DNA of 64,000 bases from an uncultured Gammaproteobacteria bacterium (GTDB lineage Bacteria; Patescibacteriota; Patescibacteriia; Magasanikbacterales; GWA2-37-8): NCBI GenBank assembly GCA_964511375.1, contig CAZEEW010000002.1:36157-100156 (forward strand), given 5' to 3'. The translations under genes and the position numbers were made by a program. Positions 11,720 to 64,000 of the stretch are shown in pieces (the first letter of the stretch is position 1; each line of letters begins with the position of its first letter). The notes beneath the pieces were generated by a model. It was not told the DNA's origin. It searched no databases and was given only the letters and a program-made list of their open reading frames with translations.

Positions 11720-11735
11720 CCTCTTAAACGATGAA

Positions 11736-11764
11736 AGCCTCGCATTGAGCGGGGCTTTTCTTTT
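11736..11764 (+). terminator. Rho-independent terminator after fusA (aagcctcgc-attga-gcggggctt-TTTT)
   Basis: Stem-loop + T-run; near-identical copy at 12461-12487. Confidence 0.7.
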
Positions 11765-11827
11765 GCAACTCTCTTGTTGACTTAAGAAAAATATTTTATA
11801 CTATGACCGTAACTAATTTAGGATATT

Positions 11828-12457
11828 ATGGGAGATAAGCCAGCATTTTTTGGAGACAGAATCCACAACGCACTGGATCAGAAAGAAATTCAATACGAAA
11901 TTAAGACCCCGCCCGTCTGGTATATACAGGGCTCTTATGTCTTGGACAAAATATTTGGTGTACGTTTAGCGAGAGATGTAGACATTTTTGCCCCACAAGG
12001 AGGCAGCCCGCCTCAATTAGAAACTATTGATGATCTGCCTGTCCACCTGACTGAGGTCGGGGATAAATCATATTTTCCGCCTGTGCTTGGCACGTATAAT
12101 ACTGACCGCTATCTGCTTGATCCTGCTGGGCAGGTTATAAAACCAAGCGGTTTCCCGGAGCGGCCCATAAGATTAGAGTTGTTGCCCGGGAGAAAATTAA
12201 GTATTGTTAACGTTGTCCGTGGAGTTAAGGTTTGTAAAAGGTATGGTTTAGAATACTCTCCTGAATTAAAAGATGAGATGACTAAGTCACTACGCAAATT
12301 ACTAAGTAAACAATCGATGGCGATGCTCATGATATTTAGCGAATCAGATTTGGCTGAATTTATTAAAGAAACTGTTGAAGCAGAAACTTCTGAAGAAGAG
12401 AGAGGAAAAGTTTGGCAGGAAATGATAGCCTTGTGCCCGAAATTAGCTAGTAAATAA
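11828..12457 (+). CDS. Nucleotidyltransferase-fold (Pol beta superfamily-like) protein, hypothetical
   Basis: GS-x12-DVD motif (GSYVLDKIFGVRLARDVDIF) typical of minimal NTase fold. Confidence 0.45.
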   Translation: MGDKPAFFGDRIHNALDQKEIQYEIKTPPVWYIQGSYVLDKIFGVRLARDVDIFAPQGGSPPQLETIDDLPVHLTEVGDKSYFPPVLGTYNTDRYLLDPAGQVIKPSGFPERPIRLELLPGRKLSIVNVVRGVKVCKRYGLEYSPELKDEMTKSLRKLLSKQSMAMLMIFSESDLAEFIKETVEAETSEEERGKVWQEMIALCPKLASK

Positions 12458-12460
12458 ATC

Positions 12461-12487
12461 AAAGCCCCGCATTGTGCGGGGCTTTTG
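12461..12487. terminator. Bidirectional terminator (gccccgc-attgt-gcggggc), near-identical to the fusA terminator
   Basis: Perfect 7-bp GC stem + T-run; 24/26 identical to 11736-11761. Confidence 0.7.
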
Positions 12488-12793
12488 TTAGGCCGCTTCC
12501 TTGTTCTCTTCATCATCTGGACTTGAGACATCTGGATCTAATTCCAGTTCTTCATTTTCATCGTTTCCTGGTCCACCGAAAGCATCGCGCCTCAAACTTT
12601 CCTCTGTATCTTCATCATCAAACATCTCGTCTAGACTTTTCCCTGGCACTTCCGTACTTTTCAACTCGTGAACTGCTTTTTGTAAAGGTGTTTCTTTTCT
12701 TTTGGCACCGGGTATTTCTGGTGGTAATTCAGAGGTATCAAAAATCTCGTCTATAGATTTTCCTAGTTTAGGCTCACCATTTTTTCTTAGCAT
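12488..12793 (-). CDS. Small acidic protein with internal repeat (GKSIDEIFD… / GKSLDEMFD…)
   Basis: ORF with two ~35-aa acidic repeats; no known motif. Confidence 0.4.
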   Translation of the reverse strand: MLRKNGEPKLGKSIDEIFDTSELPPEIPGAKRKETPLQKAVHELKSTEVPGKSLDEMFDDEDTEESLRRDAFGGPGNDENEELELDPDVSSPDDEENKEAA

Positions 12794-12798
12794 ATAAA

Positions 12799-13770
12799 TT
12801 ATTTTAAAAATACATTACGAATAACTTGGTCGATTTCGACTTCGTTAATAAGAATATCATCAACCGGAAAATCATTCAAGAGTTTTATGGCAACTTGTTT
12901 CGCTTCTGTCTTTGGCACTTCTAAAACCGTTCGCTGCGGTGTTTTTTCTTTAATATTCCCTAATTTCTCTAAAGAACTATTTTGAATAGGTTCAGTAAAG
13001 GTCACTTCCAAAACTTTGTGATGTACGTATTGGTCGATTAATTTTCTTAGTCCACCATCGTAAATAATATTACCGTGATTAACAATGATTACCCTTTCAC
13101 ACAAAGCTTCAACATCTTCCATATAATGCGAAGTGAGTACGATCGTAATCTTTTTTTCTCTGTTGTACTTTTTTAAGAATTCTCTAATGTTGTTTTGAGA
13201 TATCACATCCAAACCAATCGTCGGCTCGTCCAAGAATAATACCTTGGGGGAATGAATTAAGGCCGCAACTAACTCACATTTCATTCTTTGGCCTAAAGAT
13301 AATTTACGAACTGGAATATCTAAGATGTCTTTAATATCTAGCAAAGTCGTTAATTCCTCTAAGGTTTGTTCAAACTGTTTTTTTGGTATTTCGTAAATTT
13401 CTTTGTTTAAAATAAAACTTTCCATGGCTGGTAAATCCCACCATAGCTGGTTTTTCTGACCCATGACTAGAGCAAATTGTTTCTGGAATTCTGCCTGTCG
13501 TTTCCAAGGAGTAAAGCCTAACACTTTCGCCTCTCCCGAGGTGGGGTAAAGAATACCGGAAAGCATTTTCAGTGTCGTCGTTTTACCGGCACCATTTGGT
13601 CCTAAGAAACCCACCATCTCTCCTTCTTGAATAGTAAAGTCTATTTGTTTTACTGCTTCAGTATAAAGTTTTTGTCGATGGAATAAACTTTTGACTGAGT
13701 TCCACAGCCCAGCTTGTTTTTTGTAATATTCGTAGGTTTTAGATAAACCTTTAACTTCAATAATCGCCAT
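12799..13770 (-). CDS. ABC transporter ATP-binding protein
   Basis: Walker A GPNGAGKTT, signature LSLGQ, Walker B LFLDEPT. Confidence 0.9.
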   Translation of the reverse strand: MAIIEVKGLSKTYEYYKKQAGLWNSVKSLFHRQKLYTEAVKQIDFTIQEGEMVGFLGPNGAGKTTTLKMLSGILYPTSGEAKVLGFTPWKRQAEFQKQFALVMGQKNQLWWDLPAMESFILNKEIYEIPKKQFEQTLEELTTLLDIKDILDIPVRKLSLGQRMKCELVAALIHSPKVLFLDEPTIGLDVISQNNIREFLKKYNREKKITIVLTSHYMEDVEALCERVIIVNHGNIIYDGGLRKLIDQYVHHKVLEVTFTEPIQNSSLEKLGNIKEKTPQRTVLEVPKTEAKQVAIKLLNDFPVDDILINEVEIDQVIRNVFLK

Positions 13771-13793
13771 ATGGTTTGGTTAGATTACTTTTA

Positions 13794-14587
13794 CTAAATG
13801 CCCACTCCCTCATATTTCTTAATACCAAAATGCCATGTGATTTTGATTGCAATAAATAAAATGCCGATCCACATTACTTCGATACCGATCCCTTTCCAAG
13901 CAGTTACTAGAGGCATCCTCCCTAAAAAGATTTGGGCAGGTACAAAGAAACTGTAGGCAAAAGGTAAGAAAAAACTCATAGTAACAAACCAAGTCGGTAA
14001 AAGATTGAGAGGAAAATATCCACCAGCAAAGAAACGGCGCAGGCGTAAGATAATAGTATTCAACCCATGTACTTCATCCTGCCAAAAGTAATAAGACCCG
14101 TAAGATATGAAATGAACATTTCAATTATAAATGATAACGCTACCATTATTAGTATTGTTATAATTACAATTGGATCACTATTTAATTTCAGTCGATCGAG
14201 AAAAAATAAAGTAATGACTAATTGTGTTGTAAAGGCAAGAATAGTTACTAGACCAATCCGACCGATTTCTCGAACTAAAATATATCTAAAATAGCTAATC
14301 GGTTTTAATATATGAGTAGTTAAAAGACCTTCTTTGATATCTCTGGCGACAACTTCATAAAGGAAGTTACGAATTGCGACTGAAATAAGATTGCCAATCA
14401 ATAAATAGGTTAGCATCTCTGGTAGAGTGTACCCACCAATAATATTATTTCCCTGATATATTGCTGACCACATTAATATAACAATGAGCATCTCAGCGAT
14501 ATCACCGAAACGATAAGCCACTATGTCAAAGCGGTAAGTTAACGAACGCTGGAATGCCATTTTGATGATCGTTGCATTTTTGCTCAT
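13794..14587 (-). pseudogene. ABC-2 family permease, third paralog, split by a -1 frameshift at ~14060 (N-part 14060-14587, C-part 13794-14063)
   Basis: 175-aa + 89-aa ORFs overlap by 4 nt; C-part ends GIKKYEGVGI like paralogs (…GIKKYSSEGI, …LKKYSSASS); combined ~264 aa vs 261/265 aa paralogs. Confidence 0.55.
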
Positions 14588-14588
14588 A

Positions 14589-15374
14589 CTAACTCGACGC
14601 GCTTGAATATTTTTTTAAGCTATTATTCCAAAACAGAATTGATCCGTAAATCCAAAGACCGGTAATTAAAAAAGCCAGTAATATATTTTGCCAGCTTAAT
14701 AATCCTAATAGCCCTTTCACGGGGAAAGCCACAATTACGAAAATAGGCAGGATGAAAGTAAAAAAGAATTGAAACGCTGAGTTAAATATTTCCGGTGGAA
14801 AGCTGCCAAGATACAACCCACGACGATACAGCCATATGACACTATCACTTTCTTCGGTCCTAATTGTAATAGCGGCTGTTAAAACATGCATGCCCATTAC
14901 AATTATCATTCCTAATATAATGAGTAATATGTACCATGCCATTTCCGCCCATCCCCAAGTAAGAGGTAACCTCTGGATTACTAGTATTGTGAGTACAATT
15001 AAAATAGAGCTGAAAATAATATCTAGTAGGTCGGTTAAACGGGAGAGGATGTAGAAAAGAGTGTTTACGGGTTTTGGTAAAAGATAATCCAATTGTCCTC
15101 GCTGGATATCGTTTTTAAATACATATACACCACGGAACAAAGCTTGGGCTAATGAATCGATGAGGTTAAATGTTAAAAAGAAAAGCAAGGCTTCGTATTT
15201 ACCGTAGCCAGAGATATTGTCGGTAAAACGAAAGATGGAAAAGATCATGAGGGCGAAGAAACCAAAACGTATAATTTTGCCAATAAAATAGCTTACCGTA
15301 TCAATACGATTTGTCGCATAGCTCATGAAAGCACAGTTGGTAAGTTGTACCCAGACTCGAACGTGTTTAATCAT
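14589..15374 (-). CDS. ABC-2 family transporter permease (paralog 2)
   Basis: 6 TM hydrophobic protein, C-terminal …LKKYSSASS shared motif, adjacent to ABC ATPase. Confidence 0.75.
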   Translation of the reverse strand: MIKHVRVWVQLTNCAFMSYATNRIDTVSYFIGKIIRFGFFALMIFSIFRFTDNISGYGKYEALLFFLTFNLIDSLAQALFRGVYVFKNDIQRGQLDYLLPKPVNTLFYILSRLTDLLDIIFSSILIVLTILVIQRLPLTWGWAEMAWYILLIILGMIIVMGMHVLTAAITIRTEESDSVIWLYRRGLYLGSFPPEIFNSAFQFFFTFILPIFVIVAFPVKGLLGLLSWQNILLAFLITGLWIYGSILFWNNSLKKYSSASS

Positions 15375-39132: not shown

Positions 39133-39705
39133 TTAATCTTTGACTAGTTTAATCAATTTAATAAAAATGTCAGTATTTTTTGAAATACGAATATTATATC
39201 TAATTTTACCTTTTGTTTTGATTTTGTAAAGATGTGCTGGTATAGAAAGAGATTCTAACATTTTCATTACATCTCGAGCTAAGTTAGGTATCATAGACAC
39301 AAAATTTACCATTTTGTATCCTCTGTCGATATATATTGACCCGTCTGTTTGGAATAAACCACGTAAACATTCAATTACTGTTTGTTCCTTTTTCATAATC
39401 CAGGTTGGAACCGACACTCCTTGTTTTTCTTTTGATCCACCTAGGGTTTTCCAGCCTAATAAACTTTCCCATTTGTTAGAATAGCAGCTTATATCTTTGC
39501 AATTTCTTTTAATGTTAATTATGTTAACTTTATTCCTTGGCATAAATGATCTTAAGGAATCGGCTATTGTTCGGATTAAATTCGGGTACTTAAGATCACA
39601 GGAAATTCTAAGACGGACCGCCCTACGATTAGGGTTAGAAAGATTGCCGTCCCCAAGTGCAAGGCCGGTAATATACGCCAGAAGCTTTTCCTCCTTTTTA
39701 AGCAT
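39133..39705 (-). CDS. Free-standing double-motif LAGLIDADG homing endonuclease
   Basis: Two LAGLIDADG motifs: LAYITGLALGDGNL and LRGLFQTDGSI; 190 aa; starts 7 nt after tRNA-Leu 3' end. Confidence 0.8.
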   Translation of the reverse strand: MLKKEEKLLAYITGLALGDGNLSNPNRRAVRLRISCDLKYPNLIRTIADSLRSFMPRNKVNIINIKRNCKDISCYSNKWESLLGWKTLGGSKEKQGVSVPTWIMKKEQTVIECLRGLFQTDGSIYIDRGYKMVNFVSMIPNLARDVMKMLESLSIPAHLYKIKTKGKIRYNIRISKNTDIFIKLIKLVKD

Positions 39706-39711
39706 AAGTCG

Positions 39712-39793
39712 TGCCGATGGTGGGAATCGAACCCACAGGCCTTACGGCACACGATTTTGAGTCGTGCATGTTTACCAATTTCATCACATCGGC
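39712..39793 (-). tRNA. tRNA-Leu (anticodon CAA), type II with long variable arm
   Basis: Hand-folded: acceptor GCCGATG/CATCGGC, anticodon stem CACGA/TCGTG, loop CTCAAAA, variable hairpin GCC-GTAA-GGC, T-arm GTGGG-TTCGATT-CCCAC; CCA not encoded. Confidence 0.75.
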
Positions 39794-39871: not shown

Positions 39872-40645
39872 ATGTCCGTTATTATTTCTATCGTTAACCA
39901 AAAGGGTGGGGTGGGCAAAACTACAACGGCCGTTAACTTGGCTGCTGCCCTTTCTGAGGCGGGTAAATTTGTGCTTTTAGTAGATTTAGACCCTCAAGCT
40001 AATGCAACTTCTGGATTAGGCATTAAACACAAGGAATTAGATAAGGGTTTATACCATTCGCTCATGGGCATTCATCGACTGCATGACGTTGTGCATAATA
40101 GTGCTCATGCTGGTTTGCGTGTAGTACCGTCCACGACCGATTTGGCCGGGGCAAATGTGGAACTAGTTAGTGTTGAAGGTCGCGAGTCTAAGCTGTCCGA
40201 CATACTTAGTGAGGCCCGTCATGCCTATGATTACATTATTATTGATTCACCCCCATCGCTTGGTCTATTGACACTAAACGGCTTAGTGGCGGCTGATCAT
40301 ATCCTTATCCCGGTCCAAGCTGAGTACTATGCCCTTGAAGGCCTTGGACAACTATTAAAAACAATAGAACTGGTTAGAGATAATATTAAGCCCAATCTCC
40401 AAGTACTCGGTGCGGTTTTAACAATGTTTGACGGTCGTAACCGTTTAAGCGAAGAGGTTTTACAAGAACTTTACAAATATTTTCCAAACAATATTTTCCG
40501 AACCGTTATCCCGCGTACGGTTCGCTTGGCTGAAGCTCCGAGCTTTGGGCAAAGTATTTTCCATTATGAACCACGCGGTAAAGCTGCCAAAGCCTACGAG
40601 CGTTTAGGTCGGGAAATTATGGATATTTTTGAAATCAAAGAATAA
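39872..40645 (+). CDS. parA: Chromosome partitioning ATPase ParA/Soj
   Basis: KGGVGKTTT deviant Walker A. Confidence 0.9.
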   Translation: MSVIISIVNQKGGVGKTTTAVNLAAALSEAGKFVLLVDLDPQANATSGLGIKHKELDKGLYHSLMGIHRLHDVVHNSAHAGLRVVPSTTDLAGANVELVSVEGRESKLSDILSEARHAYDYIIIDSPPSLGLLTLNGLVAADHILIPVQAEYYALEGLGQLLKTIELVRDNIKPNLQVLGAVLTMFDGRNRLSEEVLQELYKYFPNNIFRTVIPRTVRLAEAPSFGQSIFHYEPRGKAAKAYERLGREIMDIFEIKE

Positions 40646-40666
40646 TTTAGTAGTAAATAAAAATAT

Positions 40667-41512
40667 ATGGCACTAGGGAGAGGATTGGGCGCCTTGATCT
40701 CCTCAACTGGCCCCCAAAAATCTAAAGAATCTTCAAGCGATCTACAAAAAGTATGGCATGTTGCAATAGACAAAATTACTCCTAACCGCCAACAGCCCCG
40801 TACGGAATTTGATCCAGAAGCTTTAAAAGAGCTGTCTGATTCAATACGTGTTCACGGCGTTATTCAACCGTTAGTTGTTGTGGAAGACGCTAGCGGGGGT
40901 TATGAGTTAATCGCCGGCGAACGACGCCTGCGTGCTTCAAAATTAGCCGGTTTGAAAGAAGTACCGGTAATTGTGAAAAATCACTTAGAGGATCAGGCTA
41001 AGCTTGAAATTGCGCTAATTGAAAATATTCAACGCGCCGATCTAAATCCTATTGAAGAAGCCAAGGCTTACCGCGAACTAGCTGACGTGTTTGGTTTGAC
41101 CCAACAGGAAATTGCCGATAAAATGGGGCGTAGTCGTCCGGCCGTAGCTAACATCATGCGTTTACTAGATTTGCCAATTGAGGTTCAGAATGCCTTAAGT
41201 GAGGGCAAGATAAATACAGGCCAGGCACGTGCACTTCTCACATTAGAGAATCGCGAAAAGCAGTTAGAGATGCTCCAGTCTATGCTAGGTCAAAAGATTA
41301 GCGTACGTGAACTGGAGCGAGAAGCAGTAAAACAAAATCCCGCCCATGCTAGGCGGGATCCGAATATAATGTATCTGGAAGAAAAGTTACGATTAGCTCT
41401 CGGGACGAAAGTGTCCATCACTGAAAAGAGTGGAAAGGGGCAAATTACTGTTAGTTATTACTCAAAAGACGAACTGAAAAATCTTGTCTCCAGAATCGGC
41501 GGCGACCATTAA
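40667..41512 (+). CDS. parB: Chromosome partitioning protein ParB/Spo0J
   Basis: ParB box GERRLRA, HTH. Confidence 0.9.
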   Translation: MALGRGLGALISSTGPQKSKESSSDLQKVWHVAIDKITPNRQQPRTEFDPEALKELSDSIRVHGVIQPLVVVEDASGGYELIAGERRLRASKLAGLKEVPVIVKNHLEDQAKLEIALIENIQRADLNPIEEAKAYRELADVFGLTQQEIADKMGRSRPAVANIMRLLDLPIEVQNALSEGKINTGQARALLTLENREKQLEMLQSMLGQKISVRELEREAVKQNPAHARRDPNIMYLEEKLRLALGTKVSITEKSGKGQITVSYYSKDELKNLVSRIGGDH

Positions 41513-43096: not shown

Positions 43097-45319
43097 TTAT
43101 TCGGCCATTTTTGTAAAGTCGCATTCTTTACTGCTGCACTTTATTTGCCCTTTAGCAGCAAAGATTAAGAGAGAAGAACATTTTGGGCACTTTTCTCCGT
43201 TTGGTTTTTCCCAGAGAGCAAAATCGCAGTTTGGATATTGGTTACAGGCATAGAAAATTTTCCCGCGTTTACTTCGTTTCTCAATAATATCTCCTTTTTC
43301 ACACTTTGGACATTTAACATTGGTTTTTTTCTCAATACTTTTAATTGTCTTACATTCTGGATAATTAGAACAACTTAAGAAAGGTCCAAAGCGGCCAACT
43401 TTTTGCACCATTGGACTGCCACATTTTTCACATTTTTCGTCAGTTGGTACAGCGATGGGAGCCGCAGCGCTTCCCTCACCAGCTAATTGCTTGGTGCTTT
43501 TGCAATCTGGGTAGCCAGTGCAGGCCAAGAATTTTCCAAAGCGACCCATTTTAATGACCATGGGTTTACCACATTTATCGCAAGTCTCTTCTGTCGCAGT
43601 TTCGGTTAATTCTTTTTTGTTTAACTCTTGATCTTTAGCTAAAAGATTTTCTTTAAACGGCGTATAAAAACTTTTAATGATCGGTTGCCATTCCTTTTTC
43701 CCCTCAGCGATTTCGTCCAAGTTATTCTCCATCTCAGCAGTGAAGTTAAAATCCACAATATGCGGAAAATGTTCAACTAAAAGGTCGTTAACCACATAAG
43801 CTATTTCCGTTGGTTTTAAGCGCTTTTTTTCATCACGCTCGATATATCCACGATCTTCAATGGTCGCGATAGTTGGCGCATAGGTGGACGGGCGGCCAAT
43901 GCCGTACTCTTCAAGTGTTTTAACTAGTGTGGCATCAGAATAGCGGGCTGGTGGCTCAGTAAAATGCTGCTCTGGTTTCAATTCTAAGCAGTTAATTTTT
44001 TCGCCAATCGAAACAACTGGTAAAATATTCTCCTTGGCTTTATCGGGGTATAGTTTTAGGAAACCATCAAAAACAATTGTTTGACCAGTGGCGCGGAATG
44101 TATAGTCGCCACTTTTGATGTCAATATTTTTAGCCGACAATTCTGCAGCAGCCATCTGGGTCGCAAGGGCTCGTCGCCAGATTAAGTCATATAGCTTAAA
44201 CAGCTTTGGCTCGACAAATGGCTTGATTAATTCTGGGGAGCGGGAAGCGCTAGTAGGGCGGATTGCCTCATGGGCTTCTTGAGCATTTTTACTTTTCTTT
44301 TTATAAGAGCGAACTGATTCTAAGGCATACTTGTTTCCGAAACTTTTTGTAATCTCTGTCTTGGCTTCTTGGAGGAATTTATCTGACAAGTTTACCGAAT
44401 CTGTACGCATATAAGTGATTAAACCCACTGATCCTTCACTGCCTAATTCCACACCTTCGTAAAGTTGTTGGGCTAAACGCATGGTTTGTTTAGCTGAAAA
44501 ACCCAAGTGGTTGTTCGCCTCTTGTTGTAAAGAAGAAGTAGTAAAAGGGGGAGAAGGATTGCGTTTAACAGTTTTTTCCTCAAGATTGCTAACTTCGTAA
44601 TTAGCCCCAGTTAAGGATTTAATAATCTCATCTACTCCGTCTTTGTTTTTAAGATCTAATTTATCTAGTTTTTTGTCTTTGATCGCTTGTAACCTTGCGA
44701 TGATCTGTTCCTTAGAATCTAATTTTTCAAAAGTGGCCTCAAGCGACCAGTATTCGACCGGTTTGAAGTTTTGGATTTCTCTTTCCCGTTCTACAACCAG
44801 ACGGACAGATACGGATTGTACACGCCCAGCCGACAAACCCTTTGCGACCTTGCGCCAGAGAAAAGGGGAGAGCTCGTAACCAACTAAACGGTCTAGGACG
44901 CGACGAGCTTGTTGGGCGTCCACCAAGCGTAGGTTTAAGGCCCTTGGGTGCTCTAAAGCATCTTTAATAGCATGTTCAGTAATTTCATGAAAAACCATGC
45001 GCTCGGCTTTGTCTGGATTAATACCTAAAACATGGGCGAGGTGCCAGGAAATAGCCTCACCCTCACGGTCCTCATCAGTTGCGAATATGACACCGTCACT
45101 TTTTTGAGCAAGTTCTTTCAGCTTTTTTACTTGAGCGCTTTTATCTCGGGGAATAACATAGCTTGGTTCAAAAGTTTGCCCTTCAATGTCTACTCCCATT
45201 TTGCTTTTTGGTAGATCGCGGATATGGCCAAAAGAAGACTCGACTTTGAAGCCTTTTCCTAGGAATTTTGTAATTGTTTTTGCCTTTGTTGGGGACTCAA
45301 CAATGATTAATTTAGCCAT
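43097..45319 (-). CDS. topA: DNA topoisomerase I with multiple C-terminal zinc ribbons
   Basis: TOPRIM N-terminus, active-site region, four CxxC…CxxC zinc ribbons. Confidence 0.92.
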   Translation of the reverse strand: MAKLIIVESPTKAKTITKFLGKGFKVESSFGHIRDLPKSKMGVDIEGQTFEPSYVIPRDKSAQVKKLKELAQKSDGVIFATDEDREGEAISWHLAHVLGINPDKAERMVFHEITEHAIKDALEHPRALNLRLVDAQQARRVLDRLVGYELSPFLWRKVAKGLSAGRVQSVSVRLVVEREREIQNFKPVEYWSLEATFEKLDSKEQIIARLQAIKDKKLDKLDLKNKDGVDEIIKSLTGANYEVSNLEEKTVKRNPSPPFTTSSLQQEANNHLGFSAKQTMRLAQQLYEGVELGSEGSVGLITYMRTDSVNLSDKFLQEAKTEITKSFGNKYALESVRSYKKKSKNAQEAHEAIRPTSASRSPELIKPFVEPKLFKLYDLIWRRALATQMAAAELSAKNIDIKSGDYTFRATGQTIVFDGFLKLYPDKAKENILPVVSIGEKINCLELKPEQHFTEPPARYSDATLVKTLEEYGIGRPSTYAPTIATIEDRGYIERDEKKRLKPTEIAYVVNDLLVEHFPHIVDFNFTAEMENNLDEIAEGKKEWQPIIKSFYTPFKENLLAKDQELNKKELTETATEETCDKCGKPMVIKMGRFGKFLACTGYPDCKSTKQLAGEGSAAAPIAVPTDEKCEKCGSPMVQKVGRFGPFLSCSNYPECKTIKSIEKKTNVKCPKCEKGDIIEKRSKRGKIFYACNQYPNCDFALWEKPNGEKCPKCSSLLIFAAKGQIKCSSKECDFTKMAE

Positions 45320-51172: not shown

Positions 51173-51246
51173 GGTCGCATGGCTCAGTTGGTTAGAGCGT
51201 CGCATTCACATTGCGAAGGTCCCTGGTTCGAATCCAGGTGCGACCA
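51173..51246 (+). tRNA. tRNA-Val (anticodon CAC)
   Basis: Hand-folded: acceptor GGTCGCA/TGCGACC, D-stem GCTC/GAGC, anticodon stem TCGCA/TGCGA loop TTCACAT, T-arm CCTGG-TTCGAAT-CCAGG. Confidence 0.8.
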
Positions 51247-51295
51247 CTGACCATTGAAAACCTCCAAACGCACCTTTCACAGCTAAAACTAATCT

Positions 51296-51813: not shown

Positions 51814-51885
51814 GCACCCGTCGTTCAACGGATAGGACACTGGCCTGCGAAGCCGGAAATTTAGGTTCGATTCCTAACGGGTGCA
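51814..51885 (+). tRNA. tRNA-Arg (anticodon read as GCG)
   Basis: Hand-folded: acceptor GCACCCG/CGGGTGC, anticodon stem CTGGC/GCCGG loop CTGCGAA, T-arm TTAGG-TTCGATT-CCTAA. Confidence 0.65.
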
Positions 51886-51995
51886 CTAAAAATGACGCTG
51901 TAAGGCGTTATTTTTATTATCTGTTTGATCTTTAAGATTTAATAAGCTAAAATCATTTTGGAATAAACTGGAACCTTTGGTTGTATTAAACTAAT

Positions 51996-52565
51996 ATGGA
52001 GACCAACCTAACGGACGAAGAGCTAATTGAAGAAATACGCGCTAAAGACAAAGAATTATACAGTGAAATTATTCGGCGCTATGAGACTAAGCTAGCCCAT
52101 TATTTGCGCAAGTTTTTTCGTGATAGCGACCAGTTGGCAGATGTTTTACAAGAGGTGTTCATTAAAGCTTATAGGAATTTGTATGGCTTTGACATAAAAA
52201 AACGTTTCTCCCCCTGGATCTACCGCATTGCGCACAATGAAGCCTTAAATCATATTAAAAAAAATCGTCGGGAATCAGTTTCCTTGGACGAATCGGAGTG
52301 GGAAATTATTGATGAAGATATTGATTTGAAAAAAGAAGTTGATGCTACTTTGTTAAAAGAGAAAATGGAGGTCGCTTTGCTGAGAATTAAAGAAAAATAC
52401 CGCGAACCAATTATATTGTATTATTTTGAACAAAAAACTTATGAAGAAATTTCCGACATCCTGCGTTTGCCTCGTAATACCGTCGGCACCCTAATTATGC
52501 GCGGAAAAAAAATGTTAAAAGAATTTTTGTTACAAGAAATGTATGGAGTCAAAACAAAATCCTAA
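51996..52565 (+). CDS. RNA polymerase ECF-type sigma factor (sigma-70 regions 2 and 4)
   Basis: Region 2 YRIAHNEALNHIKKNRR; region 4 HTH EISDILRLPRNTVGTLIMRGKKMLKE. Confidence 0.85.
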   Translation: METNLTDEELIEEIRAKDKELYSEIIRRYETKLAHYLRKFFRDSDQLADVLQEVFIKAYRNLYGFDIKKRFSPWIYRIAHNEALNHIKKNRRESVSLDESEWEIIDEDIDLKKEVDATLLKEKMEVALLRIKEKYREPIILYYFEQKTYEEISDILRLPRNTVGTLIMRGKKMLKEFLLQEMYGVKTKS

Positions 52566-53358
52566 CCTGGAAGATCAGGTGATGGGAAAAATTAAATGCG
52601 GACAGGTTAAGTTACGATCACGTTATATTTTTCTCGCCGAAAAGCTTGGTATCGGAAGCGTGTTAGTATTTACGGTATTACTCGCTGTGTTGCTTTTTTC
52701 GCTGGCCCTTTTTTATCTTCAGGCCACTGACAATTTGTGGTACTTAAGTTTTGGGTCTCGAGGTATCTATGCTTTTTTGGAATCATTTCCGTACTTTTTA
52801 GTAGTATGTCTAGTTCTAGTTATACTTTTATCTGGTTGGATTTTAAAAAAGAGCGGAGTTTTTTACCAAAAACCGTTCACTTATTCAATCATTGGCCTTC
52901 TGTGTCTAATATTTTTTGTCGGAACAGCTCTGGCTTTTACCGGTTTATCTGAAAAGATTGAAAATGAAACTTTTAGCAACGGTGATGCAGCAATATTTTT
53001 CCGGCCTTTCATTGGTCATGGAATAAAGCAGCGACAAAAAGGAACCGCCGGTAAGATTATTGAGGTGGGGGATGGGTATATACAGATTCAAACGCCGGCT
53101 TGTCAAAAGAAAGTATACTTAAACCGTCTAGTTCGACCGCTAGAAACAGATCTTAAACCAGGAATGTTTGTGGTGGCCGTGGGTGGACATGATGGCCCTG
53201 AATTTGTTGCTTATGACATGCGTATACTGGCCGAAGAGGATCTCCCAATGATCAAACGTGGCATTAGACGAGAATTTGGCCCAAATAATAACCGCCGCCC
53301 ACTTTTACCTTGCGGGAGTCCGGAAAACAACTTTAAGACAAAAATAATTGTTCAGTAA
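52543..53358 (+). CDS. Polytopic membrane protein, putative anti-sigma factor partner
   Basis: Overlaps sigma gene 3' end; 4+ TM helices; soluble C-terminal domain. Confidence 0.5.
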   Translation: MESKQNPNLEDQVMGKIKCGQVKLRSRYIFLAEKLGIGSVLVFTVLLAVLLFSLALFYLQATDNLWYLSFGSRGIYAFLESFPYFLVVCLVLVILLSGWILKKSGVFYQKPFTYSIIGLLCLIFFVGTALAFTGLSEKIENETFSNGDAAIFFRPFIGHGIKQRQKGTAGKIIEVGDGYIQIQTPACQKKVYLNRLVRPLETDLKPGMFVVAVGGHDGPEFVAYDMRILAEEDLPMIKRGIRREFGPNNNRRPLLPCGSPENNFKTKIIVQ

Positions 53359-53375
53359 ATGTATTAATAAATTTT

Positions 53376-53771
53376 TTGGTTATGCAAAAATTGGGTTTGT
53401 TAGGAGGAATGTTGGTTTTTGCAACATTGTTATCTGGTTGCGGGGCAACTTCGCTCACAGAGCCAGTTACTTCGAATGCTGATATCAATAGCAATGCGGT
53501 TGTCACTAATAACAGTGGACAAACAGCAGCACCAACTACTTTTACCATGGATGACGTGGCGAAGCACAATGTCAAAGAAGATTGTTACACAGTTGTCAAT
53601 GGATCGGTGTATAATCTAACTACTGCCATCTCCTCCCACCCGGGCGGTCCGCTTGCCGTCATTGGTTTGTGTGGTAAAGACGGAACAGAAAAATTCATTA
53701 ATAAACATGGTGGGCAAGACGGACCAGAGGCTAATATGGCCAAATTAAAAATTGGCGAGCTGGTGAATTAA
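53376..53771 (+). CDS. Lipoprotein with cytochrome b5-like heme-binding domain
   Basis: Lipobox LLSGC; b5 signature DVAKHN…CYTVVNGSVYNLT…HPGG. Confidence 0.7.
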   Translation: MVMQKLGLLGGMLVFATLLSGCGATSLTEPVTSNADINSNAVVTNNSGQTAAPTTFTMDDVAKHNVKEDCYTVVNGSVYNLTTAISSHPGGPLAVIGLCGKDGTEKFINKHGGQDGPEANMAKLKIGELVN

Positions 53772-54907: not shown

Positions 54908-54940
54908 TAAAACAGCTTTACCAAAGGCTGTTTTTTTGTT
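54908..54940 (+). terminator. Rho-independent terminator (acagcttt-accaa-aggctgt-TTTTTTT)
   Basis: Stem + T7. Confidence 0.7.
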
Positions 54941-57096: not shown

Positions 57097-59652
57097 ATGA
57101 TTGAATTTGGCCCTAAACCGGAGGGGCTAAAGATAGAAGCAAAAGAGCAAGAAAGGGTTAATGATGTCGCTCGGGTTTTTTTAGTTACAACCAGAACCTC
57201 AAGAGAGTTAACGCCCGATTATATCGAAGATCTAGGTGGTTTATCCCAAGTATTTTTAACAACTGGTTTATGGCTGGAAAAAGGGGAGGGTAGCGTTAAT
57301 GAGGGGCAGGTGATGCCAGTCGGTGGTAACAGAAAACTGAGGAAAAACGGTGAACCCGCAGAATCACTAAGAGCAACCGCCAGCCGCGAAAGTCGAGAAG
57401 AAGCCAGGTTAAATGTGGAGGAAAGCAGCCTCAAGGAATTGGGAGACGTTAAATATGTCATTGACCATCCTACAAAAGGGAGGTTAAAAATTAAGAGTCA
57501 TTATTATTTGGGTCGAATAAGCCCTCACGACGAAGCGCGTCAGTTGTATGAAGATGAAGACAAGATTCGCAATTTTTTACGGTTAGATGCACTCGGCCAT
57601 GCCACGTTGATGGGAGGGGTACGAGTAGACCAGAGGACAGAAGATGAATTCAAAGGGTGGGTCCGTGATCCCAGATTATTAGACAGTCTACAAAGTCCAT
57701 CCTTACCTAGTCGACCAAATTTATTGCCGACAAAAAATAAAGTGGCCCAAGCAGTTTTTGTAAACCCGGGTGAGGACAAGACCTTGACCACTGAAGAGAA
57801 AAAGAAGGCTGAAATAGAGTATGACGAGTCAGTACGCACCTTACAGATGAACTTAATGGTCGAGATGCAAAAGATCGAGGCAGATACAAAGCTTGCTATT
57901 TTAAGGGCTTTTTTAAGAAATTACCCACCAGAATCTGAGGAGTTAGAATACCAAAAGTTTGCACAGTTATTAAATAATAATGATGAAGAAGTATTAACCC
58001 CGGGCATCGTTGTTGGCGATCTTTGGCCTGGGATGATTAGATACCTTGAAAAAAGATATTCTAAGAGCGTGATACGCAAAAAATTTTACGAAGAGTTGGA
58101 CAAACAAAATTTAAATTTTGATGTTGAAGCAGCGGAGTCGCCGGCGGAAATTGTAATTAGATCAGTGTACACTCTCCTTGAATCTCATAATTTTTCGGGC
58201 GAATATTTTACGAGCAGTCGCCCAGAAATGAAAAAATTTGTTGAATCTATTATGAGGTTTATTGACGATGTAATTAAAAAATACGGATTAACTAAGCCGA
58301 AAAGACTAGGTCTGGCTGAGAAAATGGGCTACGTCAAAGATCTATTGGAGGATGTGGCGGGCGAGCCTCGAAAATGCGAAAAAGTTGAACAGATGTTTGC
58401 TCGCGATTTGGATTTACCCGAGAGACAGCTGGTTGAATTTAGAAACTCAGTTAATAATTTCCTAGTAATAATGGCGAATAAGATTATTGAGCGTTATCAG
58501 AGGCTACATAAAGGTAAAGCTGTCGCGGTCGACCCCGATCCTTTAAACGATATTAAAGACGGTGCGTTAGTTGATGTGATAAATGTTGCTTTGCCCGATT
58601 CCAGCAAGGGTGTGCGGCGAGATTGGAAAGTGCGAGAAAAGGTAGGAGAAGAGGAAGACGCAAAAAATAATTTACGACGAAAAGTTTTTGAGGCTAGACG
58701 TCTAATCGCTCTTATGTACTCCTTAAATCGTAGCTTTGATTTTTATAATCGTACAATTCTTAATGGTCGCGCACCAGTTGAGCGTATTTTTACCAGTTTA
58801 ACCAGTGGTGCAGAACAACGAAGAAAAAGAATAAAAATTGCGCAAGGTAAAAAAGGTGGATATATTGAAAATGTTGAGATTTTAAGTAGCGATAAACAAA
58901 GGGAGGAAAATAGCAGCCCAGTTGTTCTGCGTCAGGCCAGAGGTGTTTTGGCTGAATTATCCCCGGGCTTAAAAATGGAGGTGGATTCCCATGTCAAAAC
59001 TTTGCCATCATTTTATCGCAAAATACTACAATTCCGATTTGATGACGACCCCTCTACAAAAGTGCAAGACATATACCGTCGCGCGCTTACTCTTGAAAAC
59101 AGTAGCTTAAAACGGGTCGTAATTTCTGAAAGAATGGGTAAATATATTGCCGACGGTAAATTTACCATGGTTGAACCAAGATCAAAATTACAGAAAACTG
59201 TCTCGGCGGACGAACCAGACTACGAAGATGCCTTAAACATTGCGGAAGCGATTTTAATCGAAGGAAATCAGCACCCTGGGCAGCAGGTAAGAGTCATCGA
59301 TTATCGTCCTTGTGCGGCTGAAGGTGCAGGTTATGAAAGTCCATTTGGATCAGGAAGAATTCGTTTCAGTAAGTTTACGATTGAGCATACGGACGAAAAA
59401 GGTAATAAACGCTACGAGGAAGTCCAAATATATTTCCCAACTAGCGACGGCAAAAGTGCCTTTTATTGGAAAGAATTAAAAAAACGCGATGATGAATTCT
59501 TTTTCTTCGATCGCATTTTAAAAAGTCCTTACGCTCATTCTTTGGCAGATTTACTATTCCCGCCACAAATCTATGGAGAACTAGTGCATTTAGTGCACTA
59601 TAAGGATAAACAACAAGAGCTAGAAGATTTGATGAGTTTAAAAATTGGATAG
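57097..59652 (+). CDS. Large (851 aa) hypothetical protein with degenerate Nudix-like N-terminal domain
   Basis: N-term VARVFLVTT…GLWLEKGEG…GGNRKLRKNGEPAESLRATASRESREEARL (E-x7-REUxEE remnant of Nudix box); remaining ~700 aa unmatched. Confidence 0.5.
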   Translation: MIEFGPKPEGLKIEAKEQERVNDVARVFLVTTRTSRELTPDYIEDLGGLSQVFLTTGLWLEKGEGSVNEGQVMPVGGNRKLRKNGEPAESLRATASRESREEARLNVEESSLKELGDVKYVIDHPTKGRLKIKSHYYLGRISPHDEARQLYEDEDKIRNFLRLDALGHATLMGGVRVDQRTEDEFKGWVRDPRLLDSLQSPSLPSRPNLLPTKNKVAQAVFVNPGEDKTLTTEEKKKAEIEYDESVRTLQMNLMVEMQKIEADTKLAILRAFLRNYPPESEELEYQKFAQLLNNNDEEVLTPGIVVGDLWPGMIRYLEKRYSKSVIRKKFYEELDKQNLNFDVEAAESPAEIVIRSVYTLLESHNFSGEYFTSSRPEMKKFVESIMRFIDDVIKKYGLTKPKRLGLAEKMGYVKDLLEDVAGEPRKCEKVEQMFARDLDLPERQLVEFRNSVNNFLVIMANKIIERYQRLHKGKAVAVDPDPLNDIKDGALVDVINVALPDSSKGVRRDWKVREKVGEEEDAKNNLRRKVFEARRLIALMYSLNRSFDFYNRTILNGRAPVERIFTSLTSGAEQRRKRIKIAQGKKGGYIENVEILSSDKQREENSSPVVLRQARGVLAELSPGLKMEVDSHVKTLPSFYRKILQFRFDDDPSTKVQDIYRRALTLENSSLKRVVISERMGKYIADGKFTMVEPRSKLQKTVSADEPDYEDALNIAEAILIEGNQHPGQQVRVIDYRPCAAEGAGYESPFGSGRIRFSKFTIEHTDEKGNKRYEEVQIYFPTSDGKSAFYWKELKKRDDEFFFFDRILKSPYAHSLADLLFPPQIYGELVHLVHYKDKQQELEDLMSLKIG

Positions 59653-61034: not shown

Positions 61035-62801
61035 TTAGTTTGGTCGGAATGTTTTAATCAATGGTTTCATTTTATCTCCGCAAGCAGTCTTTAGGCAAGT
61101 CTCACTGAGGCGTGCTGGTTTTCCAGCACTACCATTCAGTGTGATGGCCCATCCACTACTTGCATCACCATTTTTCCAGCCTAGAAACATACCGGTATGC
61201 AAACCAGACGAATAAACTGTTTTTTCACCAATCACTTGTCCCTTTTTATCCTTAATTTTTTTAATTGAAGTTACCCCCAGAGAGTTTGCGTTATATATCC
61301 AGTAAGAATCCCCTGGTTGCAACTCGTTTGCCCACTCGTCAGGCCAACCAGGAATTCCTGCCGCCCTGATACCGGCCGCGGCCTTTTTCATTGCCTCTTC
61401 TTGAGTCTTGCTGCACGTAGGGCAGTTATACTTTTCGCCGGTTGAAAGTACTATTTCTTTTGGAAGGGACTTCATCCCTCTAGCTGATTGTAAAATACTG
61501 CAGCCACCTTTAATAAATAAACATGATGGGTCGTAGGCGCCAGTATTAGCACGGGCAAGACGGTAAATAGTTCCAGCAGTTCTTCCACATGAACCAAAAT
61601 GCACGTTGCATTTTAGAGCTGCATCGGCGACTTGTTTAACTCTTTCTGCCACTGACCCGCCGGTTACAATCTTGCTAACGCTATTAAAGAATTCTTTATT
61701 TCGAGGTTCAGACTCTGGATGGCCTGAAGGATTAAACGGTGACGTTAGTGGTAATGGACAATCGGGATATGCTGAAGAATAACTTCCAGTGTAGGCAGGG
61801 GTTGCCACACTTCCCGTACTGGCGAACGAACCTGAATCAGAAATATTTGTAGTATCAAATTCAGTTGTTTGCATTTCCTCAAAAGCGGGGAGGTCCTCTT
61901 GCTCTATGTATAGGATTTTTAAGCTTTTAAATCTGACAAGCTCAGGGTTGATTGTATATAAAATAACGTATGATCCCCACATGACTATCAAGCCGATCAC
62001 CGCCTTTGTAATTCCTTTGTAGGCTTCGCTTTTGGCTGATCCACCAGCAGAAACAACTACCTTAGCTCCTTGGATTATTATCATTACCACAGCTACAATA
62101 CTAACTATACCCAAGGCAAAATTAAATATTGCTCCCATATATTCACCAATCCAGGGTATTAGGATAAAAGTACCTTCTGGTTCTTCTACAACATTTTTAC
62201 TTACGTCGCTAAAACCACCCGATAAAGTGGGGAGCTTAATATTAGTTTTAGGCTGGAATAGTTCAATGTCAGATTTAATTACTGGGAGCTGGTTCGCCTG
62301 ACTTTGTTGGTAAAATGCAAATGACTGCTCAGTTAGATAACAACTTCCACCCATACATTTATTATTTGGGTCAGTACCTAAAACACGACATAAGGTATCA
62401 TCATCTTGTTCAGCATCATTTTTGCATTCTTTGGTAGATTTTTTTAAACACAAGCCGCCGGTGTTTGGAGCATTGTTACACAGCTCACCAACTGCACAGA
62501 TAACCTGACCGCAGGTATGTGCGGTTGGTGCCTTGCAGATTTTTGTAGTGCCACTTTGTAATAAACACGTTAATCCACTACGGCAATCTGAGGTGTACTG
62601 GCAGACTGCACCTTCACCGCCTGGTGGTTGGCAAGTGTGCCCGGCAATTGCTGAACATATAAGAGCCGGTAGACAATCTGAAGTGTCTTGACACTGATCA
62701 CCCGTGCTTCCAACTGCCAAGACCTGGGCCGGTAAGAGAAAGAGTATTGAAAATAATACCCCTAAACTTGATGCTGCGATTTTATTTTTAAATAGATTCA
62801 T
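61035..62801 (-). CDS. Secreted Cys-rich surface protein (paralog 1) with two-TM hairpin module and C-terminal CHAP/NlpC-P60-like putative peptidoglycan peptidase domain; start taken at MNLFKNK signal peptide (ORF extends to 62873)
   Basis: Signal peptide; ~20-Cys module; hairpin AIFNFALGIVSIVAVVMIIIQGAKVVVSAGGSAKSEAYKGITKAVIGLIVMWGSYVIL; C-terminal Cys (GSCGRTAGTIY) … His (GLHTGMFLGW) pair. Confidence 0.6.
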   Translation of the reverse strand: MNLFKNKIAASSLGVLFSILFLLPAQVLAVGSTGDQCQDTSDCLPALICSAIAGHTCQPPGGEGAVCQYTSDCRSGLTCLLQSGTTKICKAPTAHTCGQVICAVGELCNNAPNTGGLCLKKSTKECKNDAEQDDDTLCRVLGTDPNNKCMGGSCYLTEQSFAFYQQSQANQLPVIKSDIELFQPKTNIKLPTLSGGFSDVSKNVVEEPEGTFILIPWIGEYMGAIFNFALGIVSIVAVVMIIIQGAKVVVSAGGSAKSEAYKGITKAVIGLIVMWGSYVILYTINPELVRFKSLKILYIEQEDLPAFEEMQTTEFDTTNISDSGSFASTGSVATPAYTGSYSSAYPDCPLPLTSPFNPSGHPESEPRNKEFFNSVSKIVTGGSVAERVKQVADAALKCNVHFGSCGRTAGTIYRLARANTGAYDPSCLFIKGGCSILQSARGMKSLPKEIVLSTGEKYNCPTCSKTQEEAMKKAAAGIRAAGIPGWPDEWANELQPGDSYWIYNANSLGVTSIKKIKDKKGQVIGEKTVYSSGLHTGMFLGWKNGDASSGWAITLNGSAGKPARLSETCLKTACGDKMKPLIKTFRPN

Positions 62802-62802
62802 A

Positions 62803-64000
62803 CTAGTGATAAAACTTCGGGAATGGGCACTTGTTATACATTTCAATCGCCCGATCAACTGACGCCTCACCAAGGCCCATACAGAACCACATCGCTTTTA
62901 GATCGCGATTAGCATGAGCTGTTTGACAGTCTTTCCTTTTGAATTTTTGTAAATGCCAATCCATCAAAGCACGAGTAGAACCCTCAATGTTGAGTAAATC
63001 AGTAACGGTATAAAAATGTTCACCAAATTGTATAGCCCACTCATCGCCATTCGGTCCTTTGACTTTAATAGGCCTTTTGGCTGGATTAATTGTAATTTGT
63101 CGAAGTCCCAAACCCTTCGAAAAACGCCAGTCATAACCGTAATCTGGCGGTTCGTTTTTCTTCGGATTCTTTGTAAAGTCACCAGTGCCGGGAGCGTCAT
63201 TCATAATTTTGTAGCCATCTGGAGTGCGCGCATCGTTATGACAGTGGGTGTAGTTAACGTTTGGATCCGGAAGTTTAACTAATTTGTCTTTGGGGTAGGG
63301 GTTAAGTTTGCTTGAACAGTCAGACGTATCCGGTCCCCATAAATCTTTGGTATCAAATGTTTTGCCTGAATATTTTACACCAGACATTATGAATTGACGG
63401 CGGGCAGCGATTTTCGCTGGACGGCCTTTTCTATCTGTTGTTTTGGCGACGTTTTCATCTATGCCGACGCGTTGTACCGATCGAGATTCTTTACGTACGC
63501 CTGCCCAGAGGAAGCAGCGATCTAGCTTGGACCCGTCAGGCAGAGTAGCAGCATCGGCTAATCCGGCAATTTGGGCGTCAGTTAGTGTTCCGTCTGGTCC
63601 AGTGTTTGCAGCATGAGTGAAATTATCTGAAAATGTAACCGGAACTATATTGCCACTGAAAACCGTTGTGTCATCCCAAGTGTTGTCCTCATTTATTTCT
63701 ATTTCGTCAACTTCAATCGGGTCAATGTATTGGATTTTTAAAGCCTTGAATTTTACTAAATCCGGATTGATTGTATAGAGTAGAGCGTAGGATATCCAAA
63801 GAATGGAAAGACCAATCGCAATCTTTGTTACCTTTTTATACGCCTCACTTTTACCCGAGCCGCCAGCTGAAACTACGACTTTGGCACCCTGGACAATAAT
63901 CATAACGACTCCGACGATGCTTGCTACAGCCAAGCCGAAATTATAAATTCCGGCCAGATATTCGCCGACCCAGGGCAGATGGAGGTAACCTTCTTCGTCA
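62803..64000 (-). CDS. Paralog 2 of the surface protein (5' end beyond window): same two-TM module + C-terminal lytic-transglycosylase (SLT)-like domain
   Basis: Frame stays open to window end (…LPWVGEYLAGIYNFGLAVASIV…); shared hairpin VVMIIVQGAKVVVSAGGSGKSEAYK…; SLT-like ES (VRKESRS) and GLGLRQI motifs; stop 1 nt before paralog 1 start. Confidence 0.55.
   Translation of the reverse strand, partial: DEEGYLHLPWVGEYLAGIYNFGLAVASIVGVVMIIVQGAKVVVSAGGSGKSEAYKKVTKIAIGLSILWISYALLYTINPDLVKFKALKIQYIDPIEVDEIEINEDNTWDDTTVFSGNIVPVTFSDNFTHAANTGPDGTLTDAQIAGLADAATLPDGSKLDRCFLWAGVRKESRSVQRVGIDENVAKTTDRKGRPAKIAARRQFIMSGVKYSGKTFDTKDLWGPDTSDCSSKLNPYPKDKLVKLPDPNVNYTHCHNDARTPDGYKIMNDAPGTGDFTKNPKKNEPPDYGYDWRFSKGLGLRQITINPAKRPIKVKGPNGDEWAIQFGEHFYTVTDLLNIEGSTRALMDWHLQKFKRKDCQTAHANRDLKAMWFCMGLGEASVDRAIEMYNKCPFPKFYH

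Follow-up and report, generated by a model that had tools for sequence, protein, structure and literature searches.

Locus and domain organization of X

The 64,000-nucleotide stretch of contig CAZEEW010000002.1 (assembly GCA_964511375.1) analyzed here, referred to as the window, encodes an 851-residue protein, labeled X, in which a Nudix domain is followed by an all-helical domain and a C-terminal domain resembling the synthetase domain of the RelA/SpoT homologues (RSHs) (Table 1). As a first-pass annotation of the DNA letters had stated, the open reading frame (ORF) lies between recG, which ends 20 nt 5' of it, and the convergent radA, separated from it stop to stop by 7 nt, and all peptide strings quoted in that annotation are found in the X translation. 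The GC content of X (0.40-0.42) is the same as that of its surroundings, and the only ORFs that overlap it are short and antisense.

AlphaFold2 run from the single sequence gave no usable model (predicted local distance difference test score, pLDDT, of 34.6); supplied with a 74-sequence family alignment, which also underlies the conservation counts given below, it reached a pLDDT of 84.8 and a predicted template modeling score (pTM) of 0.89. The model comprises an alpha/beta domain (aa ~20-175), a linker, an all-helical domain (aa ~232-570), a second alpha/beta domain (aa ~572-835) and a terminal helix, and the pTM of 0.89 implies that X, as modeled, is one compact protein with a fixed domain arrangement. 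The earlier description of the ~700 residues beyond the Nudix-like region as helical and unrecognized holds for aa ~232-570 and fails for aa ~572-835, which are alpha/beta and RelA/SpoT-synthetase-like.

Table 1. Features of X and of the principal neighboring genes, in window coordinates (aa, amino acid position in X).
Feature	Position	Strand	Basis
X, complete ORF (Nudix / helical / RSH-like)	57097..59652	+	ATG start, uninterrupted, 851 aa; end includes stop codon
Nudix-fold domain, aa ~20-175	57154..57621	+	Profile and fold match
Nudix box GGNRKLRKNGEPAESLRATASRESREEARL, aa 76-105	57322..57411	+	E89-x7-R97-E98-x2-E101-E102 intact
Low-confidence linker, aa ~176-231	57622..57789	+	pLDDT 49-68
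All-helical middle domain, aa ~232-570	57790..58806	+	Model secondary structure
FEARRLI motif, aa 531-537, helix leading into C-terminal domain	58687..58707	+	Family conservation
C-terminal alpha/beta domain, probable divergent RSH synthetase-like nucleotidyltransferase fold, aa ~572-835	58810..59601	+	hhalign, hidden Markov model (HMM), Pfam, PDB
HVKTLPSFYRK, aa 632-642, counterpart of RSH ATP-phosphate motif R-x-K-x3-S-x2-R-K	58990..59022	+	hhalign to GRPKHIYSIYRKM
D658, counterpart of Mg2+-coordinating Asp of strand beta2 (SaRelP Asp107)	59068..59070	+	74/74, aligned to RSH Asp
Expanded Gly-rich G-loop and next strand, aa 738-765	59308..59391	+	Stands in place of RSH PK-x-NGYQSLHT
EEVQIYFP, aa 774-781, counterpart of RSH EVQIRT strand with catalytic Glu	59416..59439	+	Aligned to E-x-Q
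Family-specific motif KK-x-DD-x2-[YF]-x3-R ... S ... P-x3-Y, aa 795-826	59479..59574	+	Family conservation
recG, 702 aa	54968..57076	+	Pfam RecG_wedge, DEAD, Helicase_C, RecG_dom3_C
radA/sms, 457 aa	59660..61033	-	Zn ribbon, KaiC/AAA_25/RecA-like, ChlI/Lon_C
Canonical bifunctional Rel, 500 aa	41509..43011	-	HD_4 4e-46, RelA_SpoT 9e-41, TGS 8e-24; local RSH HMM 6e-64

X belongs to a divergent family of Patescibacteria

The characterization of X as an orphan was refuted by an exhaustive HMMER scan of 1.84 billion cluster representatives, in which 88 relatives were found at E<1e-3, 68 of them at E<1e-10 and 21 at E<1e-30. The orphan impression arises because a word-indexed search of 5.8 billion clusters with whole X returned the query alone; the same kind of search with the C-terminal alignment retrieved nothing, family members included, and is uninformative. 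Nearly all relatives are 700-950 aa long, share ~25-35% identity with X and match the query at both ends, and such public names as exist for them are "hypothetical protein" or "NUDIX domain-containing protein" (as for PIZ94738.1 / UniRef A0A2M7V7L7 and MDD4477023.1). As a single sequence, X had no match in NCBIfam, PADLOC or PDB, and against PHROGs it gave only noise at E>0.07, including a match to "abc2 anti-RecBCD" at E 0.19 that was disregarded. A phage origin of X was dismissed, as 2.9 million viral contigs contained zero relatives.

When the 14 closest sequences were searched against one genome per species, 14 loci were recovered, all in Patescibacteria metagenome-assembled genomes (MAGs) and mostly in Magasanikbacteria; indeed, all recovered X loci are from Patescibacteria. 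Four of these loci (L003, L006, L013 and L015) are titled "uncultured Gammaproteobacteria bacterium", yet their recG-X-radA region is as in Magasanikbacteria MAGs, with RecG and RadA 53-60% identical, and the Gammaproteobacteria label is probably wrong. X is 25-29% identical to its orthologues at loci where RecG is 53-62% and RadA 57-68% identical. This faster divergence relative to the flanking genes affects all three domains, with the catalytic residues staying fixed.

The C-terminal domain as a probable remote homologue of RSH synthetases

Three segments of the C-terminal domain, HVKTLPSFYRK, VQDIYRR and EEVQIYFP, resemble in the same order the RSH elements GRPKHIYSIYRKM, DxxAxR and EVQIRT. 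When the full-length family profile was compared with PDB, the RelA chains 5xnx (E 0.024) and 8fr8 (E 0.05) were matched exactly at this RSH-like motif, and the C-terminal profile alone matched the same chains more weakly. A Pfam search of 38 single C-terminal domains found RelA_SpoT to be the sole family matched by more than one member (4/38 at E<=1, best 0.006). We then used a canonical RSH profile assembled from B. subtilis, S. aureus and mycobacterial Rel (PDB alignments) together with E. coli RelA and SpoT (annotated genome), a second version of which adds the window's own Rel and so holds six canonical RSHs. hhalign of the family against the canonical profile gave a probability of 88.5% and an E of 2.8e-6 over 156 columns (88.0% and 3.1e-6 with the dedicated tool), and the reversed RSH profile, serving as control, gave E 0.35 and a probability of 0.2%. 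The alignment places K634, S638 and K642 on the invariant K/S/K of RPKxxxSxxxK, D658 on the invariant Asp, helix 710-723 on the CYxxLG helix, the segment IxDYKPTP on FKDYIAxPK, and E775-x-Q777 on EVQIRT.

An HMM of canonical RSHs only reached E<1 in 18/88 family members as against 0/176 reversed or shuffled decoys, with most of the matches falling on the equivalent segment, and an HMM of the same kind matched the L004 orthologue at E 3.9e-5. In the model, the secondary-structure elements follow the order strand 626-633, helix 636-646, strand 660-666, helix 710-723, strand 730-737, a loop, strand 757-765, strand 771-779 and helix 788-808, an order that we take to fit the RSH synthetase fold. 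We consider it very likely that the C-terminal ~265 residues are homologous to the RelA/SpoT synthetase domain, from which they have diverged very far.

Five residues (K634, D658, K759, E775 and R806) show no variation among the 74 sequences, and conservation is 90% or higher at R641, K642, G750, Q777, P781, K795, D798, D799, Y802, S815, P822 and Y826. Within the ATP-phosphate motif K634 (74/74) is accompanied by S638 (61/74), R641 (71/74) and K642 (73/74), and within the EEVQIYFP segment E775 (74/74) by Q777 (68/74) and P781 (71/74). The ATP phosphates in SaRelP are bound by Lys80, Ser84, Lys88 and Arg91, and Mg2+ by Asp107 and Glu174 (PMC5794853). Judged by its sequences, the family thus retains the RSH donor set for ATP/Mg2+, namely R/H-x-K-x3-S-x2-R-K, the Asp on beta2 and E-x-Q on beta4.

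The acceptor side of the site is remodeled. A Tyr of the G-loop, described as critical throughout the (p)ppGpp synthetases, provides the stacking surface for the acceptor guanine (PMC5794853). The corresponding segment of the family has the consensus S-x-GPGGGG-x-[IV]R-x-AKFY[IV]-x-HT, is longer than that of the RSHs, and was left unaligned by hhalign; its conserved residues are G750 (72/74, F in X), R756 (59/74), K759 (74/74) and F760 (65/74). Manual alignment sets F760 (F in 65/74, W in 4, Y in 1) and H764 (44/74) opposite the Tyr and His of GYxSxH. Beyond the E-x-Q strand lies the family-specific motif of aa 795-826, in which the counts among the 74 sequences are 72 for K795, 69 for D798, 70 for D799, 68 for Y802, 74 for R806, 71 for S815, 71 for P822 and 67 for Y826.

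The Nudix and middle helical domains

The Nudix-like fold recognized at the N-terminus in the first-pass annotation is borne out by both profile and model comparisons: the family profile matches MTH1 and MutT in PDB at E 3e-6 to 3e-5, and Foldseek of the model gives probability 1.0 to NUDT15 and many other Nudix proteins. Pfam NUDIX (PF00293) scores 18.9 bits on X alone, below the gathering threshold of 21.1, and the relatives P0023, P0049 and P0015 have precomputed NUDIX matches, unmarked. The family Nudix box consensus, P-V-G-G-x5-E-x7-R-E-x2-E-E-T-H-L-R, is canonical save for a His in place of the last Gly, and X, with E89-x7-R97-E98-S-R-E101-E102-A-R-L, carries Arg where the family has His. 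The box had been called incomplete, which misses its intact catalytic core and is apt for the loss of the last Gly and for a 6-7-residue insertion after GG76-77 that widens the spacing to E89. The ~160 N-terminal residues almost certainly form a hydrolase domain of Nudix fold that retains its catalytic glutamates.

The middle domain offered no such identification. A profile of 15 sequences covering aa 228-572 matched only designed helical or coiled-coil bundles in PDB, a compositional similarity, and found no recurrent family in Pfam. The candidate that this region is a degenerate HD hydrolase domain was rejected, with hhalign against the RelA/SpoT HD domain at E 0.23 and no conserved His/Asp pair. 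As read from its sequence, the middle ~340 residues are a helical domain without recognizable relative. The FEARR helix at its end is near-invariant, with E532, A533 and R535 each kept in 72/74 sequences.

Genomic neighborhood of X

At 14 of the 22 informative loci, recG immediately precedes X in the same orientation (L002-L004, L007-L011, L013-L015, L021, L024 and L025), and at 11 loci radA lies convergently downstream. The gap between recG and X is 1-10 nt in L002, L009, L010, L011, L015 and L021, and a terminator-like hairpin is found in the window at 54909-54934, before recG, with none between recG and X; the two genes are probably co-transcribed in a Magasanikbacteria-like clade. The recG-X-radA trio is kept despite differing genes upstream of recG, these being dprA-pth-der-lytR with a 168-aa ORF in the window, L003, L009, L010, L011 and L021, and secY in L008, L013 and L014. 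X occupies a syntenic, core-gene position in at least 15 genomes, the window included. The synteny with recG and radA proposed in the first-pass annotation is real, and it is confined to the Magasanikbacteria-like clade.

Elsewhere X keeps other company. In L005, a Parcubacteria MAG, it follows uvrD and ndk (NDK at 893-1375, 33 nt upstream); in L019, the contig of P0049, it is followed on the same strand (10262-14865) by three photolyase-family genes (DNA_photolyase, DPRP and FAD_binding_7), interspersed with a Flavin_Reduct gene; in L020 it follows genes for pyruvate kinase, PPDK and an MGMT-type DNA_binding_1 protein. It lies beside rpsF-ssb-rpsR and a methyltransferase gene in L022, after hrcA-grpE-hsp20-dnaK in L023, and among unrelated genes in L018, L012 and L026. 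An IMP dehydrogenase (IMPDH) gene follows X at 10-19 nt, in the same orientation, in L003 (10371-11798, where it sits between X and radA) and in L006 (2535-3890); the IMPDH and NDK that adjoin X are both purine-nucleotide enzymes. A HEPN_AbiU2 gene is located ~5 kb downstream of X in L019.

The window also encodes a canonical bifunctional Rel 14 kb away, which ruled out X as a sole RSH replacing Rel. Because canonical Rel is encoded in the same window, X is the second, non-canonical RSH-type protein predicted for this genome. The window Rel is short, lacking the usual C-terminal ACT/RRM region, and adjoins topA (43097..45319).

A proposed mechanism and its alternatives

X points to the synthesis and turnover of signaling nucleotides rather than to MutT-type sanitizing of the nucleotide pool, since the catalytic residues of its putative pyrophosphokinase domain are kept more strictly than the Nudix box. 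The first-pass suggestion of a DNA-damage or nucleotide-surveillance factor was a guess made without the C-terminal RelA/SpoT-like domain; a repair link is possible, from gene context. We propose that X is a Nudix-plus-RSH nucleotide pyrophosphokinase/hydrolase, a scenario that, with activities predicted from sequence, stands evenly balanced between right and wrong. The C-terminal domain would bind ATP-Mg2+ as in the RSHs and move the beta-gamma pyrophosphate of ATP to an acceptor 3'-OH, yielding a (p)ppGpp- or (p)ppApp-like alarmone. The IMPDH and NDK neighbors and the ancestry of the family make a purine nucleotide the likeliest acceptor. Since a longer Gly-rich loop, containing an invariant Lys and a Phe, takes the place of the guanine-binding G-loop, both acceptor and product may differ from those of the cell's canonical Rel. 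The Nudix domain would cut a diphosphate bond in this product or in a precursor, either degrading the product, like the HD domain in Rel/SpoT, or trimming pppGpp to pGpp, like NahA; Nudix enzymes are known to hydrolyze (p)ppGpp (PMC6606846, PMC3153485). The helical domain would join the Nudix and RSH-like parts and may take regulatory input. X would be an extra, specialized signal source beside canonical Rel, and co-transcription with recG would couple the expression of X to the repair of replication forks or R-loops.

Several observations weigh against this proposal. The homology to RSHs is remote, with an hhalign probability of 88% rather than >95%; RelA_SpoT (PF04607) stayed below the Pfam threshold in every member and gave no match in X itself; and three fold searches of the uncut model were filled by Nudix matches, leaving RSHs compared by secondary-structure order only. 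At the active site, position 632 is Arg in 50/74 sequences and His in X, the G-loop Tyr has no demonstrated counterpart, as the equivalence of F760 comes from manual alignment only, and the family does not preserve the His of RSH AAHW, a residue in contact with the ATP ribose. Because the Nudix box is degenerate in some members (~15-25% of the family), Nudix hydrolase activity, insofar as sequence predicts it, cannot be universal across the family. Finally, the neighborhoods of X outside one clade are heterogeneous, 8/22 informative loci being without recG, and the canonical Rel has its own HD hydrolase, which makes X dispensable for basic (p)ppGpp metabolism.

Two alternatives concern the chemistry of X. 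The Nudix domain could be the sole catalyst, as a MutT-like sanitizer, an Ap_nA hydrolase or an RNA 5'-pyrophosphohydrolase, with the C-terminal domain a non-catalytic, RSH-derived binding or regulatory module. The strong Nudix fold match, public annotation that shows NUDIX alone, and the acceptor-site Tyr and ribose-binding His, neither demonstrably retained, speak for this arrangement; yet the residues that are 100% invariant are the C-terminal ATP/Mg2+ catalytic set, whereas the Nudix residues are kept in 72-86% of sequences (R97 in 64 of 74, E98 in 56, E101 in 53 and E102 in 62), and such conservation is not expected of a pseudo-enzyme, so that we regard it as highly improbable. Equally improbable in our estimation is a C-terminal nucleotidyltransferase-fold enzyme of other chemistry, such as adenylylation (nucleoside monophosphate transfer) or phosphotransfer to a non-nucleotide, whose likeness to RSHs is one of fold. 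The remoteness of the homology, an RSH likeness seen in profiles and in secondary-structure order, and a Gly-rich loop and KK-x-DD...R motif that have no RSH counterpart are compatible with such an enzyme. The generic signature of pol-beta-type transferases is hG[GS]...DxD. The match to X falls instead at the RSH-specific R-x-K-x3-S-x2-RK and E-x-Q-I, and no other nucleotidyltransferase family appeared in the Pfam or PDB searches.

The remaining alternatives concern the role of X. That it is an effector like the toxic small alarmone synthetases (toxSASs), and hence a fused toxin-antitoxin or anti-phage module, is very unlikely given its vertically inherited core-gene position in at least 15 genomes; it also has no PADLOC match, no relatives on viral contigs and no conserved small partner gene, its family is far above toxSAS size, and its neighborhoods are not defense islands, a single HEPN_AbiU2 gene lying at a distance in one locus. 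A DisA-like checkpoint enzyme, whose nucleotide synthesis would respond to DNA branches or damage or to direct contact with RecG or RadA and whose messenger would thereby signal trouble at replication forks, would refine the Nudix-plus-RSH proposal and has gene context in its favor: the recG-X-radA trio outlasts rearranged surroundings, with recG-X gaps of 1-20 nt in 7 loci; spoT and recG share an operon in E. coli; and genes of the photolyase family (L019), MGMT type (L020) and UvrD (L005) adjoin X at other loci. Parallels also exist in other bacteria, as DisA of Firmicutes acts on RadA/Sms and RecG, according to PMC8645862 and PMC8227628, and RelZ ties an RSH synthetase to UV and R-loop stress (PMC7591505). 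Pfam and the middle-domain profile searches of PDB and Pfam revealed no recognizable DNA-binding domain in X, however, and beyond the informative loci without recG, the collinearity could reflect shared ancestry in one clade; we judge a DisA-like enzyme quite unlikely and a link of X to DNA damage or repair, as a refinement of the Nudix-plus-RSH proposal, unlikely in general. It is unlikely, too, that X founds a new RSH branch in which Nudix replaces HD, the remodeled Gly-rich acceptor loop leads to a signal distinct from that of the canonical Rel, and the enzyme is wired to RecG/RadA fork repair in Magasanikbacteria; were this true, X would be the counterpart, in the candidate phyla radiation (CPR), of DisA/RelZ-type replication-stress signaling.

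Relation of X to known systems

In its proposed working X is closest to the long bifunctional RSHs, and its fold places it in the Nudix superfamily; it is a variation on what is known rather than something categorically new. With the long RSHs (the window Rel, B. subtilis Rel 6yxa and E. coli SpoT) it shares the order from N-terminal hydrolase to synthetase and the aligned ATP/Mg2+ residues, and recG is likewise a genomic neighbor of E. coli spoT (operon gmk-rpoZ-spoT-trmH-recG). In contrast to these proteins, the hydrolase of X is Nudix and not HD, a ~340-aa helical domain and three strands are added, the G-loop is remodeled and RelA_SpoT is below the Pfam threshold; HD_4/HD, TGS and ACT were not found in X by Pfam, which places it outside the long RSHs.

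The small alarmone synthetases RelQ and RelP, as well as RelZ, use a synthetase domain outside the ribosome-dependent stringent response, as is proposed for X. M. smegmatis RelZ, in which RNase HII is fused N-terminally to the RSH synthetase, is linked to UV, R-loop and replication stress (PMC7591505) and provides a precedent for an unrelated catalytic domain N-terminal to an RSH synthetase, the partner in X being Nudix. Pfam readily detects small alarmone synthetases, and these retain the G-loop Tyr (PMC5794853); X escapes the Pfam profile, has no demonstrated counterpart of this Tyr and is 3-4 times larger. The toxSASs (FaRel2, CapRel, PhRel and Tas1) are also divergent RSH synthetase domains, with altered acceptors (the tRNA 3' end or adenine nucleotides), but they are small and occur in mobile or patchy toxin-antitoxin or defense loci with the antitoxin separate or C-terminal, whereas X is large, syntenic and without a defense signature.

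On the Nudix side, T. thermophilus Ndx8, E. coli MutT/NudG and B. subtilis NahA share with X the Nudix fold and, in altered form in X, the Nudix box; they act on (p)ppGpp (PMC3153485, PMC6606846, PMC7584652). A likeness to DisA, a messenger enzyme acting with RadA/Sms and RecG, is one of gene context only, as the DAC and HhH domains of DisA were not found in X by Pfam and there is no homology. In Firmicutes, disA and radA are encoded together. The full-text literature searched, the coverage of which is incomplete, yielded no account of a Nudix-RSH fusion, so that its absence is unproven; in the 2011 RSH survey, Nudix figures only as a DUF429 partner and as a non-homologous ppGpp hydrolase (PMC3153485).

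Long RSHs, small synthetases and small hydrolases are usually taken to account for alarmone metabolism, Nudix enzymes being loosely attached helpers. If our reading of X is true, a Nudix domain hard-wired to an RSH-type synthetase would be a new architecture, missed by Pfam and with a rebuilt acceptor site; Nudix alarmone turnover would gain a dedicated genetic context, genome-reduced CPR bacteria a second nucleotide signal, and the position in an apparent operon with recG would link nucleotide signaling to replication-fork or R-loop repair. About 88 clusters now labeled "hypothetical" or "NUDIX domain-containing protein" would gain a specific annotation.

Other features of the window

Downstream of radA, ORFs for two large proteins at 61035..62873 (-) and 62803..63933 (-) overlap by 71 nt and share a similar hydrophobic segment. 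The product of the former has a Cys-rich N-terminus and a weak T4SS_pilin match (24.9 bits, cut-off 26.6), and partial homologues of the two proteins follow radA in most related loci. On the other side of recG, an ECF-type sigma factor gene (51996..52565, +) overlaps by 23 nt the gene for a 271-aa membrane protein (52543..53358), a possible anti-sigma factor for which Pfam gave no match, and a protein with a cytochrome-b5-like heme-binding domain and a lipoprotein-like N-terminus is encoded at 53376..53771 (+).

Two tRNA genes precede this group, an ordinary tRNA-Val(CAC) at 51173..51247 and a tRNA-Arg at 51814..51886 (+) to which ARAGORN assigns the anticodon GCG. Bacterial tRNA-Arg of this kind usually has ACG, read as ICG, and the GCG anticodon may be unusual. 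Just upstream of parA/parB (39872..41512), a free-standing 190-aa LAGLIDADG ORF (39133..39705, -) lies 6 nt from the gene for tRNA-Leu(CAA) (39711..39793, -).

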